Source of the DNA: Escherichia phage AV112
Sequence record: OR352942.1
DNA: 64,000 nucleotides
Direction: 5' to 3' (one strand)
Position 1 is the stretch's first letter. Each line of letters opens with the position of its first letter. A program made the position numbers and the translations under genes. The notes under the pieces are model-generated. The model searched no databases. It had not been told where the DNA came from and worked only from the letters and a program-made list of their open reading frames with translations. Shown in pieces: positions 50,663 to 60,808 of the stretch.

Positions 50663-53600
50663 ATGGCCGACATCAAACGTAAGTTCAGAGCCGAAGACGG
50701 TCTGGACGCCGGTGGCGACAAGATTGTTAACGTAGCATTAGCCGACCGTACAGTAGGTACTGATGGCGTAAACGTTGACTTCCTGGTACAAGAAAACACC
50801 GTTCAAGTATATGATTCTACGCGCGGATATAACAAAGGATTTGTTGTTCTTTATGACAACCGTTTATATCAAGCAATAAATGATATCGTGTCTCCTTCCG
50901 GGGCATTTAACCTTTTACAATGGCGTGCAGTTCGTACCGATGCACAATGGATAACTGTCTCTTCTGGGACTTATCAACTTTCTTCAGGTGAATCGATTTC
51001 GGTTAACACTGGTGCCGGCAATGATATGGTTTTCACATTGCCAAATGCGCCGGTTGATGGTGACACTGTTGTTTTGGCTGATATTGGTGGAAGAACCGGG
51101 ACAGTTAAAGTACAGATTAACGCGTCTGTGCAGAGTATTTTAAACTTTAGAGGTGAACAAGTTCGTACAGTTTTAATGACGCGCCCACGTTCACAACTAT
51201 TGTTTGTGTTTAGTAATCGTTTGTGGCAGATGTATATTACCGATTATGGTAAAGAATCAATCACTGTTACACCTGCGGCACCATATCAAGCACAAGCAAA
51301 TGATTTTATCGTTCGTCGTTTTACTAGTGCAGCACCAATCAACATTACACTTCCACGTAATGCTAACAATGGTGATATAATCAGCCTAGTCGATTTAGAT
51401 AGATTAAACCCACTGTATCATACAATTGTTAAAACATTTGATGATACAACGTCTATTGGTGAAGTCGGGACTCATATTGCCGAAGGCAGAAATGACTCTG
51501 ACGCGTTTTTTGTTTTTGATGCTGCAAATAGTTTATGGCGTATATGGGAAGGCGACCAGAAATCGCGTCTTCGTATTATCCGTGTGGATTCAAATATTCG
51601 TCCAAATGAAGAAGTTCTTATTTTTGGCACAAATAACGCTACAGCCGGAACTATTAATCTTACGCTGCCTTCTGGAATTTTGAGTGGTGACACCGTTAAA
51701 ATTTCAATGAACTACATGCGTAAAGGCCAAACAGTAAAAATTAAAGCTGCCGAAGGTGATACAATTGCTTCTTCTGTTGCGTTGCTTCAGTTCCCTAAAC
51801 GTTCGGAGTATCCACCTGATGCACAATGGGTCTCTGTTACTGAACTAGAATTCAATGGCACTACTTCATATGTTCCTGTATTAGAATTAGCGTATATCGA
51901 AGACACCGTTGCTGGTACGCGTTATTGGGTTGTTAAACAAAACGTCCCAACTGTAGAACGTGTCGATGCTGGAACTGATACAACTAGAGCTCGTGTAGGT
52001 GTTATTGCTCTTGCAACTCAGGCACAGGCAAATGTTGATTTTGAAAATTCTCCGGCTAAAGAAGTTGCTATTACTCCTGAAACGTTGGCAAATCGTACAG
52101 CAACTGAAGCTCGACGTGGTATCGCCAAAATTGCTACAACAGCACAAGTTAACCAGAATTCCACAGCAACATTTGTAGACGATACTATTGTTACGCCTAA
52201 AAAATTAAATGAGCGTACAGCAACTGAAACTCGTCGCGGTCTTGCTGAAATTGCTACTCAGACTGAAACCGATGCTGGTCTTGATGACACAACGATTATT
52301 ACGCCTAAGAAATTACAGGCACGTCAGGGTTCCGAAACACTATCGGGTATAGTTAAATATGTATCAACTACTTCTGCTACTCCTGCCGAAACTCGTGGGG
52401 CTGCAGGCACTAATGTTTATAATAAAACCGTAAATAATTTAACTATTTCTCCTAAAGCCCTTGACCAATATAAAGCAACTTACGCCCAACAAGGTGCAGT
52501 AATTTTAGCTATTGATAGTGAAGTAATTGCTGGACAATCTCAGTCTGGATACTCTCATGCTGTAGTAACTCCTGAAACACTACATAAGAAAACTTCTACT
52601 GATGGACGTATTGGTTTAATTGAAATTGCTACGCAAGCAGAAACTAATGCTGGGACTGATTATACACGTGCAGTAACGCCTAAGACGTTAAATGATAGGA
52701 GAGCGACGGAAGGATTATCCGGCATAGCCGAAATTGCTACGCAAGTTGAATTTGATACTGGAACTGATGATACTCGTATCTCGACTCCACTGAAAATTAA
52801 AACTCATTTTGATTCTTCTGACCGTACCAGTGTTAATTCTGATTCCGGACTTATTGAAGAAGGAACCTTGTGGAACCATTATACTCTTGATATTTCTAAA
52901 GCAAATGAAACACAACGTGGTACACTTCGCGTAGCGACCCAGGCAGAATCTAATGCAGGAACTTTAGATGATGTTCTTATTACTCCTAAAAAGCTTTTAG
53001 GGACTAAGTCCACTGAAACGTCTGAAGGTGTAATCAAGGTTGCAACCCAGTCTGAAACTGTGACTGGAACGTCAGCGAACACTGCTGTATCTCCTAAGAA
53101 TTTAAAATGGATTGTGCAGAGTGAACCAACATGGGCTGCTACTACAGCAATTCGCGGATTCGTTAAAACTTCATCCGGTTCTATTACATTCGTTGGTAAT
53201 GATACAGTCGGTTCTACACAAAACTTAGAGCTATACGAGAAAAATAGCTATGCAGTATCACCGTATGAATTAAACCGTGTATTGGCAAATTACTTGCCAT
53301 TAAAAGCAAAAGCTGCTGACGCAAATTTATTAGATGGCCTAGATTCATCTCAGTTCATTCGTAGGGACATTGCACAGACGGTTAATGGTTCACTAACCTT
53401 AACCCAACAAACGAATCTGAGTGCCCCTCTTGTATCATCTAGTACGGCTACGTTTGGTGGTTCGGTATCTGCTAATAGTACATTAACTATTTCTAATACA
53501 GGTGCTTCAACTCGCTTAATATTTGAAAAAGGTCCACAAACTGGAAACAACCCTGCTCAGGCGATGAATATCCGTGTATGGGGTAACCAATTCGCCGGCG

Positions 53601-55736: not shown

Positions 55737-56402
55737 ATGGCCGATTTAAAAGCTGGTAGTACAACTGGCGGTGCCGTTATATGGCATCAAGGTAATTTCC
55801 CTTTAATGCCAGCAGGTGATGACGTCCTGTATAAAACGTTTAAACTTTATTCAGAATATAATAAACCACAAGCGGCTGATAACGATTTTGTTTCTAAAGC
55901 TAATGGTGGTACTTTTGCGTCAAAGGTAACATTTAATGCTGGTGTTCAAGTACCATATGCTATAAACAATACAAACCAAAGCGGTATTTATCCTGGCAAT
56001 GGCGACGCAGCTACTTTTGCTACAGCAAATATTGATATTGTTTCATGGTATGGTATTGGTTTTAAATCATCACAGGGTTCAGCAGCCCGAACTGTTGTAA
56101 TTAACACACGTAATGGTGATATTAGTACAAAAGGTGTTGTGTCGGCAGCTGGTCAAGTAAGAAGTGATGCGACTGCTCCTATAGCAGCGAATGACCTTAC
56201 TAGAAAAGATTATGTTGATGGACGAATAAATATTGTTACGGATAACGCAAATTCCCGTGTATTGCGTTCTGGCGATACCATGGCTGGTACTTTAACAGCA
56301 CCAAACTTTTTCTCACAGAATCCGGCATCCGAGGCTAATCATGTTCCTCGTTTCGACCAGATTGTAATTAAAGATTCTGTTCAAGATTTCGGCTATTATT
56401 AA
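55737..56402 (+). CDS. 36: Long tail fibre distal connector gp36
   Basis: 221 aa as in T4; late promoter upstream. Confidence 0.85.
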
Positions 56403-56410
56403 GAGGACTT

Positions 56411-59400
56411 ATGGCTACATTAAAACAGATACAATTTAAAAGAAGCAAAGTAGCAGGAGTTAATCCTACTGCAGCACAATTAGCCGAAGGCGAATTAGCG
56501 ATAAACTTAAAAGATCGAACTCTTTTTACTAAAGATGACCTCGGTAATATTATTAGCCTAGGCTTTGCTAAGGGCGGGGATATTAACGGTAATGTAACTC
56601 AAAATGGAGATTATTTACAGAACGGTACATATAATCTCAATGGAAACCAGTTTGTTTATGCAGGAAAGTATATTGAATTCTTGCCAAAAACTGCTGGAAA
56701 TGGCGCTTGGGCTAACCAACACACAAATAAAGCCCCTATCTTTACAGATTTGAGTTCAACTACTTCAACTTCTGAATACCATCCTTTGATTAAGCAACGT
56801 TATAAAAACGGTACTTTTTCAGCAGGTACATTAGTAAGCGAAGGTAGTTTTAAAATTCACTATATCGATGAAACAGGTGATTCAAAATATTGGACTTTTA
56901 ACCGTAACGGTAGTTTTATTGTAGATAACGGCAATATTGAAGTCCGCGCCGGTAATATTTCGGCTTCAGGTAATATTAACTCTGCTTCAGGGGTTGTGTC
57001 TGCGCCACGCGTCAACACAAAAAATATTAACTTGAGTTCTAAAACCTTTATCCCGAATAATGACGCGGGTTATGACATTGTTTCTTTACCTACTTGGATT
57101 TATAATCCACCAGCAGATGGTTCAGACCGTGATACAAACGGATTGAACTACATGCGTAAAATGCGTGCATCAAACACATCCAGCATTTTCCATGAAATTG
57201 TCGATTGCCGTAAAGACAAGCCGCAAGAAATTTCTTGGTGGACTGGTGTAGGGCCGTCATCTTTCCAATGGTCGTTTGATACCACTGGACGTATTGCTGC
57301 CGGTAAATCAATTTCTGTAGGTCTTCCTGATAATGGTGTGAATGGTCGTTATCCGCTTGAGTCTGCAATTTCTATTGGTATTGCAATTGGTGATAACGAC
57401 ACCGGTATTAAATGGGTCCGCGACGGTGTTATTGATTTCATGGCTAATGGTATTTCATCCGCTACCATTTTGAATAACGGTATTAACAGTACTAAGAAAT
57501 TGATGGTCGGTTATAGCCGCGATTCTGGTACTACTTGGGATTTCCCAAATAACAACCAAGCAATGTTTACTGCTCGTACTGATATTGATGGTAATAATAA
57601 CGGCGATGGACAGACTCATATCGGTTATAGCAGCAATTCTAAAATGTATCACTATTTCCGTGGCACGGGTCGTATGGCTATTGGCATGGCCGAAGGACTT
57701 ATTGTTGAACCAGGAATTTTAGATATTAAAACTAGTTCAAATACATTAAGTTTGCGTGCTGATGGTACCGTCGCTTCTGTTCAAACATTAAAGCTTAATA
57801 ATGGATTATATTTTAATGGTGATGGAACTAATGCTTCTCTAGTTTTTAAAGCAGCTTCAGGTATTGACGGCACTAAGCAAATCATGTGGGAAGGCGGTAC
57901 TCGAGCAGGTCAGAATAAGAGTTATGTAACTGTTAAAGCATGGGGTAATTCATTTAACGCATCCGGCGATCGTACTCGTGAAACAGTTTTTGAAGTAGCT
58001 GACGGGCAGGGATATTATTTTTATTCACAGCGTGTGGCTCCAACCGGTTCAGAAACTGTGGGACCTGTTGTAACACAAATTAATGGACAACTGAATGCAA
58101 GAGGGAGCATTATCACCGATGGAAGTCTTAGAGTTAATGGATTAAGTACATTATCCGGACAAGTTACTATGGATAACGGGCTTGTTTTATCCGGCGGTGG
58201 TTCTATTACCGGTCAAGTTAAAATCGGTAATACCGCAGATGCTTTCCGTATTTACAATGCTGAATATGGAGCTATTTTCCGTCGTTCTGAAGCATCTTTG
58301 TATATTATACCTACTCCTAAAGATGCCGGAGAATCAGGAGGTATAAGTAATCTTAGACCATTGACAATAGAACTGAACACTGGTACAGTTAAAATGTCAC
58401 ATGATGTTCATTTGGGAGATTCTGGATCCGGCACAGGATTATTACAAGTAAGTAATAGTCTTAAAACTATTAAAATGATATGTCCAGTAACTATTAATGA
58501 ACGTAATGCAGCGCTTACTCTAGATTCTCCTTCATCTTCTTCTGCTAATTATTTGCAGGGTTCTAAAGCTGGAACTAGATCTTGGTATGTTGGTCTTGGT
58601 GGTTCTGGAAATGATTTATCACTTTATAGCCAATCGTATGGACATGGTCTTGTTATAAGTGATAATTTCGTGTCAATCACTAAACCCTTTAAAGTCGGAA
58701 ATGCCCAACTAGGAACTGATGGTAATATCACCGGTGGTTCTGGTAATTTTGCTAACTTGAATACCACAATAAATAACCTTAAGACGGATATTGTCTCAAG
58801 TTATCCAATTGGTGCTCCAATTCCATGGCCAACGGATACTCCTCCTAATGGTTACGCTATTATGGAAGGTCAGACTTTTGATAAGTCTGCATATCCAAAG
58901 TTAGCTGTTGCATATCCTAGTGGTGTTATTCCAGATATGCGTGGGCAAACTATCAAGGGTAAACCAAGTGGTCGTGCTGTTTTGAGCGCAGAAGCAGACG
59001 GTGTTAAGTCACATAGCCATAGTGCAAGTGCATCAAGCACAGATTTAGGTACTAAGACCACTTCTAGTTTTGATTACGGTAGCAAAACGACTTCAAGCTT
59101 TGATTATGGTACTAAGACAAGTAGTACCACTGGCAACCATAACCATACAGTGAGTGGTAATACTAGTTCCGCTGGTGCTCACCAACACGCGCGTTCAGGC
59201 CCTCAGATACAAGGCGGCGTACCCGCTAGCATATTCTATGATGGATACAATAGTGCCGGTCCAAACGGCAACGCTAAAATCACTGGAAGCGTGAGCGGTG
59301 CTACTGCATCGTCGAATATGGCCAAAACTTCTTCAGACGGTGCCCACACCCATAGTTGGTCTGGTACTACTAGCGCCACAGGTAACCATGCGCATACGGT

Positions 59401-59557
59401 AGGTATTGGCGCTCATACCCATTCGGTAGGTATTGGTGCTCATACGCATACTGTTGCAATTGGTTCCCATGGACATACAATAACTGTAAATGCCACAGGA
59501 AATACAGAAAACACAGTTAAAAACGTTGCTTTTAACTATATCGTTCGTTTAGCATAA
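56411..59557 (+). CDS. 37: Long tail fibre distal subunit gp37 (receptor-binding)
   Basis: 1048 aa (T4 1026); C-terminal His-x-His boxes and conserved ...[14 protein letters not shown] end. Confidence 0.95.
59048..59137 (+). repeat. Degenerate 30-nt (10-aa) tandem repeat in gp37 tip region
   Basis: [10 protein letters not shown] / [10 protein letters not shown] / [10 protein letters not shown]; copies differ at synonymous sites. Confidence 0.8.
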
Positions 59558-59563
59558 GGAGAA

Positions 59564-59585
59564 GGGACTTCTGTCCCTTTTTATA
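59564..59585 (+). terminator. Terminator after gene 37
   Basis: GGGAC-UUCU-GUCCC then UUUUUAU. Confidence 0.7.
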
Positions 59586-59587
59586 AT

Positions 59588-60139
59588 ATGAAACTCTATC
59601 ACTATTATTTTGACACTAAAGAATTTTACAAAGAAGAAAATTACAAACCATTAAAAGGCGTAGGATTTCCGGCTCATTCGACACCAAAAAAACCTTTAGA
59701 CCCTAAAGAAGGCTATGCTATTATATTTGACGAACGCGAGCAAGAATGGGTATATGTTGAAGACCATCGTGGAAAAACGGTATGGACTTATGATAAGCAA
59801 AAAATTGTTATTGACACTCCAGGTGCTCTTCAAAATGTTACTACAGAAGAACCCGGCGAATTTGACATTTGGACCGACGACGGGTGGAAGGAAGATGAAG
59901 CATATAAACGCGTAGTTCAACGTGATAAGAAAATTCATGAACTCTATAAATTATTCAGTGTTTTAAGTTCTCTTATTGACGCAGAGGTTGCTAATAGAGA
60001 AGAAAAACGAAAATTTAAAGAGCTCAAAAAATTCTTTGCCCTTTTAGAAAAACATGAACATCTTGGCGGCGAATTCCCTAAATTCCCTGACCTTGAAAAC
60101 AAATCTATTATCAAAGCGATTATAAATATCTTTAAGTAA
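59588..60139 (+). CDS. 38: gp38, T4-type tail fibre assembly chaperone
   Basis: 183 aa as in T4; MKLYHYYFDTKEFYKEENYKP...; not the T2-type adhesin. Confidence 0.9.
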   Translation: MKLYHYYFDTKEFYKEENYKPLKGVGFPAHSTPKKPLDPKEGYAIIFDEREQEWVYVEDHRGKTVWTYDKQKIVIDTPGALQNVTTEEPGEFDIWTDDGWKEDEAYKRVVQRDKKIHELYKLFSVLSSLIDAEVANREEKRKFKELKKFFALLEKHEHLGGEFPKFPDLENKSIIKAIINIFK

Positions 60140-60148
60140 GGAGGTATT

Positions 60149-60808
60149 ATGGCAACACCAAAAGTATCATTTTCGCCTAGTGATATTCTATTTGGGTTGC
60201 TAGATCGTATTTTCAAAGATAACGCTACTGGAAAGGTTTTAATGTCTCGAGTAGCGGTAATTATTCTTTTGTTCCTAATGGCACTAATATGGTACAAAGG
60301 AAGTATTTTGCTGGATTATTACGTAAGAGCTAAGTATGATACTTATACTGAAATAATCCAAAAAGAACGAGCTTTACGTTTTGAATCTGCGGCTCTAGAA
60401 CAACTGCAAATAGTTCATATCTCATCTGGTGCAGATTTTAGTGCTGTGTATTCTTTCAGACCTAAAAACTTAAATTATTTTGTCGACCTTATAGCTTATG
60501 AAGGCAAACTACCTAGCACAATTTCTGAAAAGTCCCTTGGCGGATTCCCGGTGGATAAAACGGCCAATGAATATATAATTCATTTAAGTGGCCGTCATTT
60601 CTCATCTAAATCAGAATTTGCATTTTTGCCTACAAAATCTAAGACTGCCGAACTTTCTTATATGTATAGTTGTCCATACTTTAATTTGGATAACATCTAT
60701 GCCGGAACTGTGACGATGTATTGGTATAAGGGGAGTAATATACTTGAGGAAGACCGCTTAGCGGCTATATGCAACCAAGCGGTCCGAATACTAGGAAGGG
60801 CTAAATAA
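60149..60808 (+). CDS. t: Holin t
   Basis: 219 aa (T4 218); N-terminal TM and large periplasmic domain; ends ...RILGRAK. Confidence 0.9.
   Translation: MATPKVSFSPSDILFGLLDRIFKDNATGKVLMSRVAVIILLFLMALIWYKGSILLDYYVRAKYDTYTEIIQKERALRFESAALEQLQIVHISSGADFSAVYSFRPKNLNYFVDLIAYEGKLPSTISEKSLGGFPVDKTANEYIIHLSGRHFSSKSEFAFLPTKSKTAELSYMYSCPYFNLDNIYAGTVTMYWYKGSNILEEDRLAAICNQAVRILGRAK

Follow-up and report, generated by a model that had tools for sequence, protein, structure and literature searches.

A T4/lambda-type collar, needle and head module is the probable adhesin at the C-terminus of the long tail fibre protein gp37 of Escherichia phage AV112

The C-terminus of gp37 encoded in the window (the whole 64,000-nt stretch of Escherichia phage AV112 DNA analyzed here; OR352942.1) is by its motifs and alignments a T4-type tip of collar, needle, and head, and it is very probably best explained as the C-terminal adhesin module of a long tail fibre of the T4/lambda type. 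The window is 100% identical in sequence to Escherichia phage AV113 (OR352943, Mosigvirus), in whose record the protein is annotated as 'T4-like gp37'. Overall, gp37 is 45% identical to T4 gp37 and matches phrog_1699 (E 1e-242). The genes are ordered 37-38-t, with gp38 being the sole open reading frame (ORF) between gp37 and the holin (Table 1). The T4-like gp37, the gp38 chaperone, the divergence of the head domain, and OmpC as the predicted receptor are already given in the AV113 genome paper (PMC10844046); the preliminary description of this tip is correct but already known and adds little that is new.

The collar lies just ahead of the needle and is near-identical to those of T4 and PDB entry 2XGF. 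In a phmmer search against PDB, the tip matched 2xgf_A (E 3.9e-94) in two stretches, query residues 8-164 and 216-285, and the homology spans both the outgoing and the returning half of the needle. All eight HxH motifs in the 1,048 residues of gp37 are found in the tip, which has 16 histidines in 159 aa compared with 9 in the other 865 aa, indicating that the clustering of the boxes is not due to chance. The boxes start 42, 14, 55, 14, 9, 9, and 9 aa apart in the window and 32, 14, 37, 14, 9, and 9 aa apart in T4 gp37, with the 14-aa spacing of boxes 2 and 3 being that of T4 H915 and H929. The return run begins with GNHAHTV (aa 993-995) and continues at aa 1002-1004, 1011-1013, and 1020-1022. 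The protein closes with ...NYIVRLA, and in T4 residues 1010-1026 belong to D10 (PMC6957217). Both the retained His-x-His boxes and the conserved extreme C-terminus that had been reported for this protein were thus found again.

Table 1. Coordinates of the features of the gene 37-gene 38 region in the window
Feature	Position	Strand	Basis
Gene 37, long tail fibre distal subunit, 1048 aa	56411..59557	+	ORF
Collar domain (D10-type), aa 801-848	58811..58954	+	Pfam PF07484 Collar, 44.2 bits, cutoff 24
His-x-His box 1, KSHSHSA, aa 868-870, needle base	59012..59020	+	Aligns with T4 H883/H885
Three 10-aa outgoing-strand repeats, aa 880-909 (two in T4)	59048..59137	+	DNA repeats; 10-aa T4 gap
His boxes 2 and 3, GNHNHTV aa 910-912 and GAHQHAR aa 924-926, distal needle	59138..59188	+	Motif positions
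Head (tip) domain, 52 aa, aa 927-978, hypervariable, presumed receptor-contacting	59189..59344	+	No convincing likeness to T4 head
His box 4, GAHTHSW, aa 979-981, first of return strand	59345..59353	+	Motif position
Four return-strand His boxes, 9-aa spacing (three in T4)	59387..59476	+	27-nt x3 repeat; 9-aa T4 gap
Conserved C-terminal 26 aa, returning into collar	59477..59554	+	24/26 residues identical to T4
AAGGAG and hairpin between gp37 stop and gp38 AUG, split Shine-Dalgarno element	59556..59587	+	RNA fold
Gene 38, T4-type tail-fibre assembly chaperone, 183 aa	59588..60139	+	Homology, PF02413, phrog_105

An alignment of the window tip with that of T4 gp37 covers 259 aa, includes 37 gap positions, and gives 64% identity; the tip is therefore divergent from T4, as had been proposed, rather than identical to it. 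The two proteins are near-identical in the collar, in the first His box, and over the final ~60 aa. T4 gp37 (D10-D11, 2XGF) is also like the window in its 14-aa distal spacing, its 9-aa return spacing, and its last 26 aa, whereas it has seven His boxes instead of eight and two outgoing repeats instead of three. The outgoing strand of the window is 10 aa longer than that of T4 and the return strand 9 aa longer (VGIGAHTHS), and the head is replaced by one with 18 additional aa. The degenerate 30-nt repeat noticed earlier between the His boxes is present in three copies at 59042-59131, with DNA identities to the first copy of 73% and 67% for the other two. The array was found with a gapless repeat finder, and Tandem Repeats Finder made no call on it even at a minimum score of 30. 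Another repeat, of 27 nt, occurs three times at 59387-59467, with DNA identities of 85% and 70% among the copies. The claim of an extra 10-aa repeat holds in that there is one more than in T4, but it is no peculiarity of the window, as a third copy also occurs in lambda Stf and in the majority of the T-even relatives compared here; T4 represents the shorter class. The VGIGAHTHS unit had been listed in the preliminary description, but its being extra relative to T4 had been overlooked.

The side fibre of lambda is also close in architecture. The C-terminus of lambda Stf (orf-314) belongs to the same needle length class, with three FDYG repeats and four terminal boxes spaced 9 aa apart, and has the same eight-box needle as the window, to which it is 65% identical over about 255 aa. 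However, the head sequence of Stf is another one, and the module is carried on a short siphovirus side fibre instead of a 1,048-aa myovirus distal half-fibre. The T4-type tip is regarded as lambda derived (PMC3157838).

The lengths of the two needle halves are coupled. Among 210 intact homologues, a spacer of 32 occurs with three terminal boxes in 134, a spacer of 42 (or 41) with four terminal boxes in 70, and a spacer of 52 with five terminal boxes in 4. No mismatched pair of spacer and box number was found among the 210, with two outliers fitting if one lost or extra His box is allowed, although the homologues are mutually related and the perfect pairing may partly mirror few ancestral events instead of selection. 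Every spacer class includes heads of many lengths, which indicates that heads have often been swapped while the needle halves stayed paired. From this pattern, we read the two insertions as probably one added metal-binding layer and not as a stand-alone repeat. We lean, by a modest margin over even chances, toward the view that needle layers are quantized, with each layer requiring an outgoing repeat of 10 aa together with a return box of 9 aa and only the 2+3, 3+4, and 4+5 combinations folding, so that needle length, head reach, and the number of metals (5 to 8 or more) would form a discrete evolvable trait apart from head specificity. Our literature search found no statement of such a pairing rule; Bartual 2010 (2XGF), which lay outside the search, may contain it. 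Neither PMC9659904 nor PMC11705849 makes a statement on variation in the number of His boxes. Because outgoing and return units are strictly paired, crossovers must keep the halves matched, and the pairing can serve as a design rule for grafting heads or altering needle length in T4/lambda-type receptor-binding proteins.

In the T4 tip, seven Fe atoms are coordinated, every one of them through the His-x-His motifs of three chains (PMC6957217). The T4 contacts G921-F970 and G964-H929, together with the limits of D11 at 882-1009 (PMC6957217), give an antiparallel register with i+j of about 1892, which would set the three 9-spaced return boxes of T4 between outgoing boxes 1 and 2. With its eight His boxes, the window protein has eight predicted metal sites versus seven in T4; this metal count and the layer geometry of the needle are what we infer from the number of motifs. 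An AlphaFold2 monomer model of the tip, built on a 70-sequence alignment, was discarded for assigning the strand register (mean pLDDT 52, pTM 0.21); its low confidence is as expected, since the tip is an intertwined obligate trimer. In the proposed structure, three gp37 chains would fold into the collar with the aid of the gp38 chaperone and of gp57A, which is encoded elsewhere in the genome. A thin six-stranded needle would rise from the collar and hold metal ions, each bound by the His-x-His of all three chains, and a small intertwined head at its far end would touch the cell. The needle of the window would be one layer longer than that of T4, with the extra 10-aa repeat as the outgoing half of this layer and VGIGAHTHS as its return half.

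The segment of gp37 that the preliminary description could not match to T4 corresponds to the head, which consists of 52 aa and has no convincing similarity to the 34-aa head of T4. None of the T4 residues important for binding OmpC or lipopolysaccharide (LPS) could be aligned in the window head. In comparisons of AV113 with relatives of the same architecture, identities range from 37% to 98% in the head and from 90% to 97% outside it. The head allele family is present in at least 86 phage records and occurs in many Mosigvirus and Tequatrovirus phages. The view that specificity resides in gp37 itself is the accepted one for fibres built in this way and was also the conclusion of the AV113 authors, who predicted OmpC as the receptor of AV113 (PMC10844046).

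Two Tequatrovirus phages of the BASEL collection, Bas41 (FriedrichZschokke) and Bas44 (AdolfPortmann), link this head family to a receptor. They have the same architecture without gaps, agree with the window at 193 of 215 positions in the tip and at 40 of 52 in the head, and likewise carry the gp38 chaperone downstream, but they belong to another genus, have another fibre shaft, and differ at 12 head positions, so that head identity with AV113 is only 77%. OmpC is their primary receptor and the LPS deep core their terminal receptor (PMC8594841 supplement), which makes them an experimental OmpC anchor for the allele family and is of use for the selection or engineering of phages that target ESBL E. 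coli. In addition, 17 OmpC-specific Straboviridae use gp37 D10/D11 with extensive allelic variation of the tip (bioRxiv 10.64898/2026.04.02.716166), and AV117 and AV118, which have other head alleles, are OmpC dependent (PMC10844046). By analogy with these phages, OmpC is the likely receptor of AV113 itself; most likely, OmpC would serve as the primary receptor to which the 52-aa head binds reversibly, followed by attachment of the short tail fibres to the LPS core.

The head sub-allele of AV113 might instead recognize a target other than OmpC, such as the LPS core alone, another porin, or particular OmpC variants only, which we regard as unlikely. AV113 is among the phages whose receptor is given in its own paper as a prediction only, and LPS dependence is proposed there for AV122 and AV116, phages of the same collection with a T4-type gp37 (PMC10844046). 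T4 itself is able to turn to LPS on cells lacking OmpC (PMC6957217). The 12 substitutions relative to Bas41/Bas44 fall within a head of only 52 residues, and near-identical heads occur in phiD1, isolated on Yersinia pestis (83%), and PhiZZ30, isolated on Serratia (79%). However, the T4-type gp37 phages to which the sources consulted assign a protein receptor all use OmpC, namely Bas40, Bas41, Bas42, and Bas44, AV117 and AV118, and 17 of 17 Straboviridae (PMC8594841; PMC10844046; bioRxiv 10.64898/2026.04.02.716166), and this targeting holds over very different head alleles. Moreover, heads 92% identical to that of the window are found in JS09 and phiC600P9, whose growth hosts are K-12 and B strains.

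The relatives also bear on the modularity of the tip. Among those compared, the most similar head at the protein level is that of RPN187 (98%), followed by those of JS09 and phiC600P9. The tip DNA of RPN187 is 99.4% identical to that of the window, while its gp37 shaft is unrelated; the shared region covers 58680-60808 at 96.6% identity and excludes the shaft at 56607-58680. Thus, tip, gp38, and holin would form a cassette whose recombination is uncoupled from that of the shaft. For the extra repeat, an origin in a recent tandem duplication that widened the host range, which would make it a lineage-specific novelty, is highly improbable. In favour of this origin, phages are documented to gain new hosts through duplications within the adhesin domain of gp37, and the repeat units of the window lie in tandem without breaking the frame. 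Tetart et al. in 1996 reportedly described laboratory T4 host-range mutants carrying duplications in this domain. Nevertheless, the copies are old, with DNA identities of only 67-73% for the 30-nt units and 70-85% for the 27-nt units, and the layout of three repeats and four boxes is also present in lambda Stf, AV117, AV118, ST0, Bas41, Bas44, JS09, phiD1, and HX01 and in 70 protein clusters. A recent duplication was rejected on this copy divergence and wide distribution; a duplication that is always paired on both strands is not what one slippage event would yield.

Gene 38 agrees with a T4/lambda-type module in which gp37 carries the specificity. The product shares 66% identity with T4 gp38 across 179 of its 183 aa (E 2e-91), matches PF02413 Caudo_TAP (23.3 bits, cutoff 22.1) and phrog_105 'tail fiber assembly' (E 1.7e-49), and is annotated as 'T4-like gp38 chaperone' in the AV113 record. 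Its family matches are to assembly-chaperone families only, and lambda Tfa is 31% identical to it. These data bear out the earlier statement that gp38 is the T4-type chaperone and not the T2/T6 adhesin. By analogy with T4 (PMC6957217, PMC3157838), gp38 would be a folding helper that is missing from the mature virion. That specificity comes from a T2/T6/S16-type gp38 adhesin (about 260 aa long and bearing both glycine-rich motifs and hypervariable stretches) capping a gp37 whose C-terminal intramolecular chaperone is cleaved has a negligible probability and is refuted by the sequence; that arrangement is called predominant in the T4 superfamily in PMC3157838 and occurs in Mosigvirus AV109, AV111, AV114, and AV115 of the same collection (PMC10844046), but gp38 in the window is a 183-aa likeness of the T4 chaperone, no further ORF separates gp37 from the holin, and gp37 closes with the T4/lambda needle and its terminal motif.

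The short interval between the two genes forms a hairpin (-15.9 kcal/mol, z -3.26) in RNA folding. It was considered as a terminator and rejected; a consensus terminator scan did not call it, and the folding shows the known translational hairpin of gene 38. Such a split Shine-Dalgarno hairpin is known to enhance the translation of gene 38 in T4 (PMC3014915). T4 has the equivalent split element ahead of its gene 38, and the substitutions in the stem preserve pairing.

The stretch that carries genes 37 and 38 (56411-60139) is 100% identical, with a one-base offset, to Escherichia phage AV113 (OR352943.1), and its gp37 and gp38 are referred to here as those of AV113. AV113 belongs to Mosigvirus and comes from wastewater in Denmark; in its record the locus is annotated as "T4-like gp37" and "T4-like gp38 chaperone", followed by a holin. 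AV112 and AV113 have been described as nearly identical (PMC10844046); AV112 was absent from the matches at ≥99% identity in the phage collection searched. The host of AV113 is E. coli ESBL153 in GenBank (OR352943) but ESBL56 in the table of PMC10844046, where ESBL153 is the entry for AV112. The record also bears a misc_feature, "Dupl_ends_SPAdes", in gene 34, which marks joined duplicated contig ends from the assembler and is an assembly note of no biological meaning.

Features of the gp37-gp38 locus and its surroundings
Feature	Position (nt)	Length or residues	Source
"Dupl_ends_SPAdes" in gene 34	51556-51682	127 nt	GenBank record
gp36	55737-56402		ORF list
gp37	56411-59557	1048 aa	ORF list
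Eight His-x-His boxes	59012-59476	aa 868-1022	
30-nt repeat, three copies	59042-59131		
Head, ending KTSSDGA	59189-59344	52 aa	
27-nt repeat, three copies	59387-59467		
gp37 stop to gp38 AUG	59556-59590		
gp38	59588-60139	183 aa	ORF list
Holin t	60149-60808		ORF list

The gp37 tip was correctly observed and interpreted in the preliminary description, and it is an ordinary, widespread and previously published allele. All eight His-x-His boxes quoted there were found, and gp37 has no HxH motif outside this set; histidine accounts for 16 of 159 residues in the tip and 9 of 865 in the remainder. The degenerate 30-nt repeat on the outgoing strand of the needle is also real, with copies 73% and 67% identical, and the return strand contains a second, 27-nt array (copies 85% and 70% identical) encoding the units HTVGIG, HSVGIG, and HTVAIG. 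A recent duplication is ruled out, since the copies are too diverged (67 to 85% DNA identity).

The gp37 of AV113 and that of T4 have a mosaic relationship, with an overall identity of 45%. The tip matched the T4 tip structure (PDB 2XGF) at an E value of 3.9e-94 and, as had been supposed, diverges from T4, with 64% identity and 37 gap positions over the final 259 aa. Compared with T4, the outgoing strand is 10 aa longer, which represents an extra FDY repeat, and the return strand is 9 aa longer, which represents an additional GIGAHTHxV unit. The head of T4 has only 34 aa and gave no convincing alignment. The start-to-start spacings of the His boxes are 42, 14, 55, 14, 9, 9, and 9 in AV113 versus 32, 14, 37, 14, 9, and 9 in T4. 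Mutagenesis showed that H929, H931, I933, N937, G938, G940, G942, G943, S947, and Y949 are essential in the T4 tip and that K945, I951, and Y953 are important in binding to OmpC (PMC6957217); among these residues, only the two histidines could be aligned in AV113.

In homologues retrieved by two protein searches, we measured how far box 2 lies from box 1 (the spacer) and how long the terminal run of 9-aa-spaced boxes is. Among 210 intact sequences, spacers of 32 aa occurred with three terminal boxes (134 sequences), spacers of 42 (or 41) aa with four (70 sequences), and spacers of 52 aa with five (4 sequences), and no mismatched combination was found. The two homologues that looked like outliers conform as well: in P0215, outgoing box 2 has been lost but both the two repeats and the three return boxes are retained, and P0216 has an extra HDH within a repeat (19 + 33 = 52) and five boxes. 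Head lengths ranged from 33 to 58 aa in the 42-aa class and from 35 to 70 aa in the 32-aa class, which indicates that heads have been swapped repeatedly while the needle halves stayed paired. Published T4 contacts (G921-F970, G964-H929) and the limits of tip domain D11 (882-1009) (PMC6957217) imply an antiparallel register with i + j of about 1892, which places the three 9-spaced return boxes of T4 between outgoing boxes 1 and 2. On this basis, we infer from sequence that the needle consists of layers that each take up about 10 residues on the outgoing strand and 9 on the return strand, which would give AV113 an additional layer, and with it an additional metal site, compared with T4. An AlphaFold2 monomer model of the tip was unusable (pLDDT 52, pTM 0.21). 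The strict pairing of outgoing and return units in three discrete length classes is the sole addition made here; it amounts to a modest structural rule, one that was not found in the literature accessible to us. The longest class occurs in prophage-type fibres (homologues P0189, P0192, P0211, and P0216), with four outgoing repeats and five return boxes, and needle classes that have just 5 or 6 boxes altogether lack the 14-aa-spaced distal pair.

AV113 has the needle length of lambda, whereas T4 belongs to the shorter class (32-aa spacer, three terminal boxes), and the T4-type tip is regarded as being of lambda origin (PMC3157838). In the lambda side fibre Stf (orf-314), which shares 65% identity with the AV113 tip, three FDYG repeats are combined with four terminal 9-spaced boxes. 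With eight boxes in total, Stf (L015; NC_001416, 1530-2471) exceeds the seven-iron T4 tip by one, so eight metal sites are predicted in lambda side fibres. The eight-box form was also found in AV117, AV118, ST0, RPN187, Bas41, Bas44, JS09, phiC600P9, phiD1, HX01, PhiZZ30, and O157 typing phage 6.

At least 59 phage records gave a gapless match of ≥90% identity to the 531-nt tip region, and the 211-nt head alone was found in 125, 86 of them with ≥80% of the head covered. These head-bearing records belong to Mosigvirus and Tequatrovirus, with E. coli, Shigella, Yersinia pestis, Serratia, and Citrobacter as isolation hosts. The 52-aa head of AV113 shares 98% identity with that of RPN187, 92% with JS09 and phiC600P9, 83% with phiD1, 79% with PhiZZ30, 77% with HX01, Bas41, and Bas44, 73% with O157 typing phage 6, and 37% with ST0, which has the same architecture; outside the head, the tips of all these phages are 90 to 97% identical to AV113. 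The AV113 head is also similar (44 to 50% identity) to the head most often seen on the side fibres of E. coli prophages (KSSGAFGG..SIFPNGY..KTSSDGA), a head that sits on a seven-box needle. The contigs that hold two "Tail fiber protein" entries from Shigella sonnei/flexneri (P0001 and P0002; 84 to 93% identity to the AV113 tip) measure 113 kb and 165,868 bp and are most likely T4-like phage genomes deposited inside bacterial assemblies.

The gp37 shaft is mosaic. RPN187 shares two blocks with the window: one that ends at 56607 (93.9% identity) and takes in gene 36, a portion of gene 35, and ~65 codons at the start of gp37, and another at 58680-60808 (96.6% identity; collar, needle, head, gp38, and holin). 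Its shaft between these blocks (56607-58680) is unrelated. Other break patterns were seen in AV117, AV118, and ST0, the last named as the nearest genome to AV113 (PMC10844046). Together these breakpoints indicate that tip, chaperone, and holin travel as a cassette; published work likewise holds that the locus recombines at conserved motifs (PMC3157838).

T4-like gp37 with a gp38 chaperone has been reported in AV110, AV112, AV113, AV116, AV117, AV118, and AV122, with the major differences in the head domain (PMC10844046). A closer anchor added here is provided by Bas41 (MZ501067) and Bas44 (MZ501046) of the BASEL collection, which carry the head family of AV113 and are listed with OmpC as the primary and the LPS deep core as the terminal receptor (PMC8594841 supplement). 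OmpC is thus the best predicted receptor and probably the one used by AV113. The 12 head substitutions between AV113 and Bas41/Bas44 leave room for AV113 being LPS-dependent or specific to OmpC variants instead.

The T4-type arrangement, with gp38 as a chaperone, was rightly recognized in the preliminary description: gp38 is 66% identical to T4 gp38 over its full length (31% to lambda Tfa), scores above the Pfam threshold for Caudo_TAP, and has a match in phrog_105 ("tail fiber assembly"), and the ORF list has no T2/T6-type adhesin gene between gp37 and t. The gp37-gp38 junction contains AAGGAG and the hairpin GAAGGGAC-UUCU-GUCCCUUU (-15.9 kcal/mol, z -3.26), which was not called in the terminator scan; the gp38 AUG lies ~27 nt downstream of AAGGAG. 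In the equivalent T4 hairpin the loop is UUCG and the substituted stem positions still pair (-16.7 kcal/mol, z -4.19). This element is already known as the "split Shine-Dalgarno" structure that enhances translation of gene 38 in T4 (PMC3014915).
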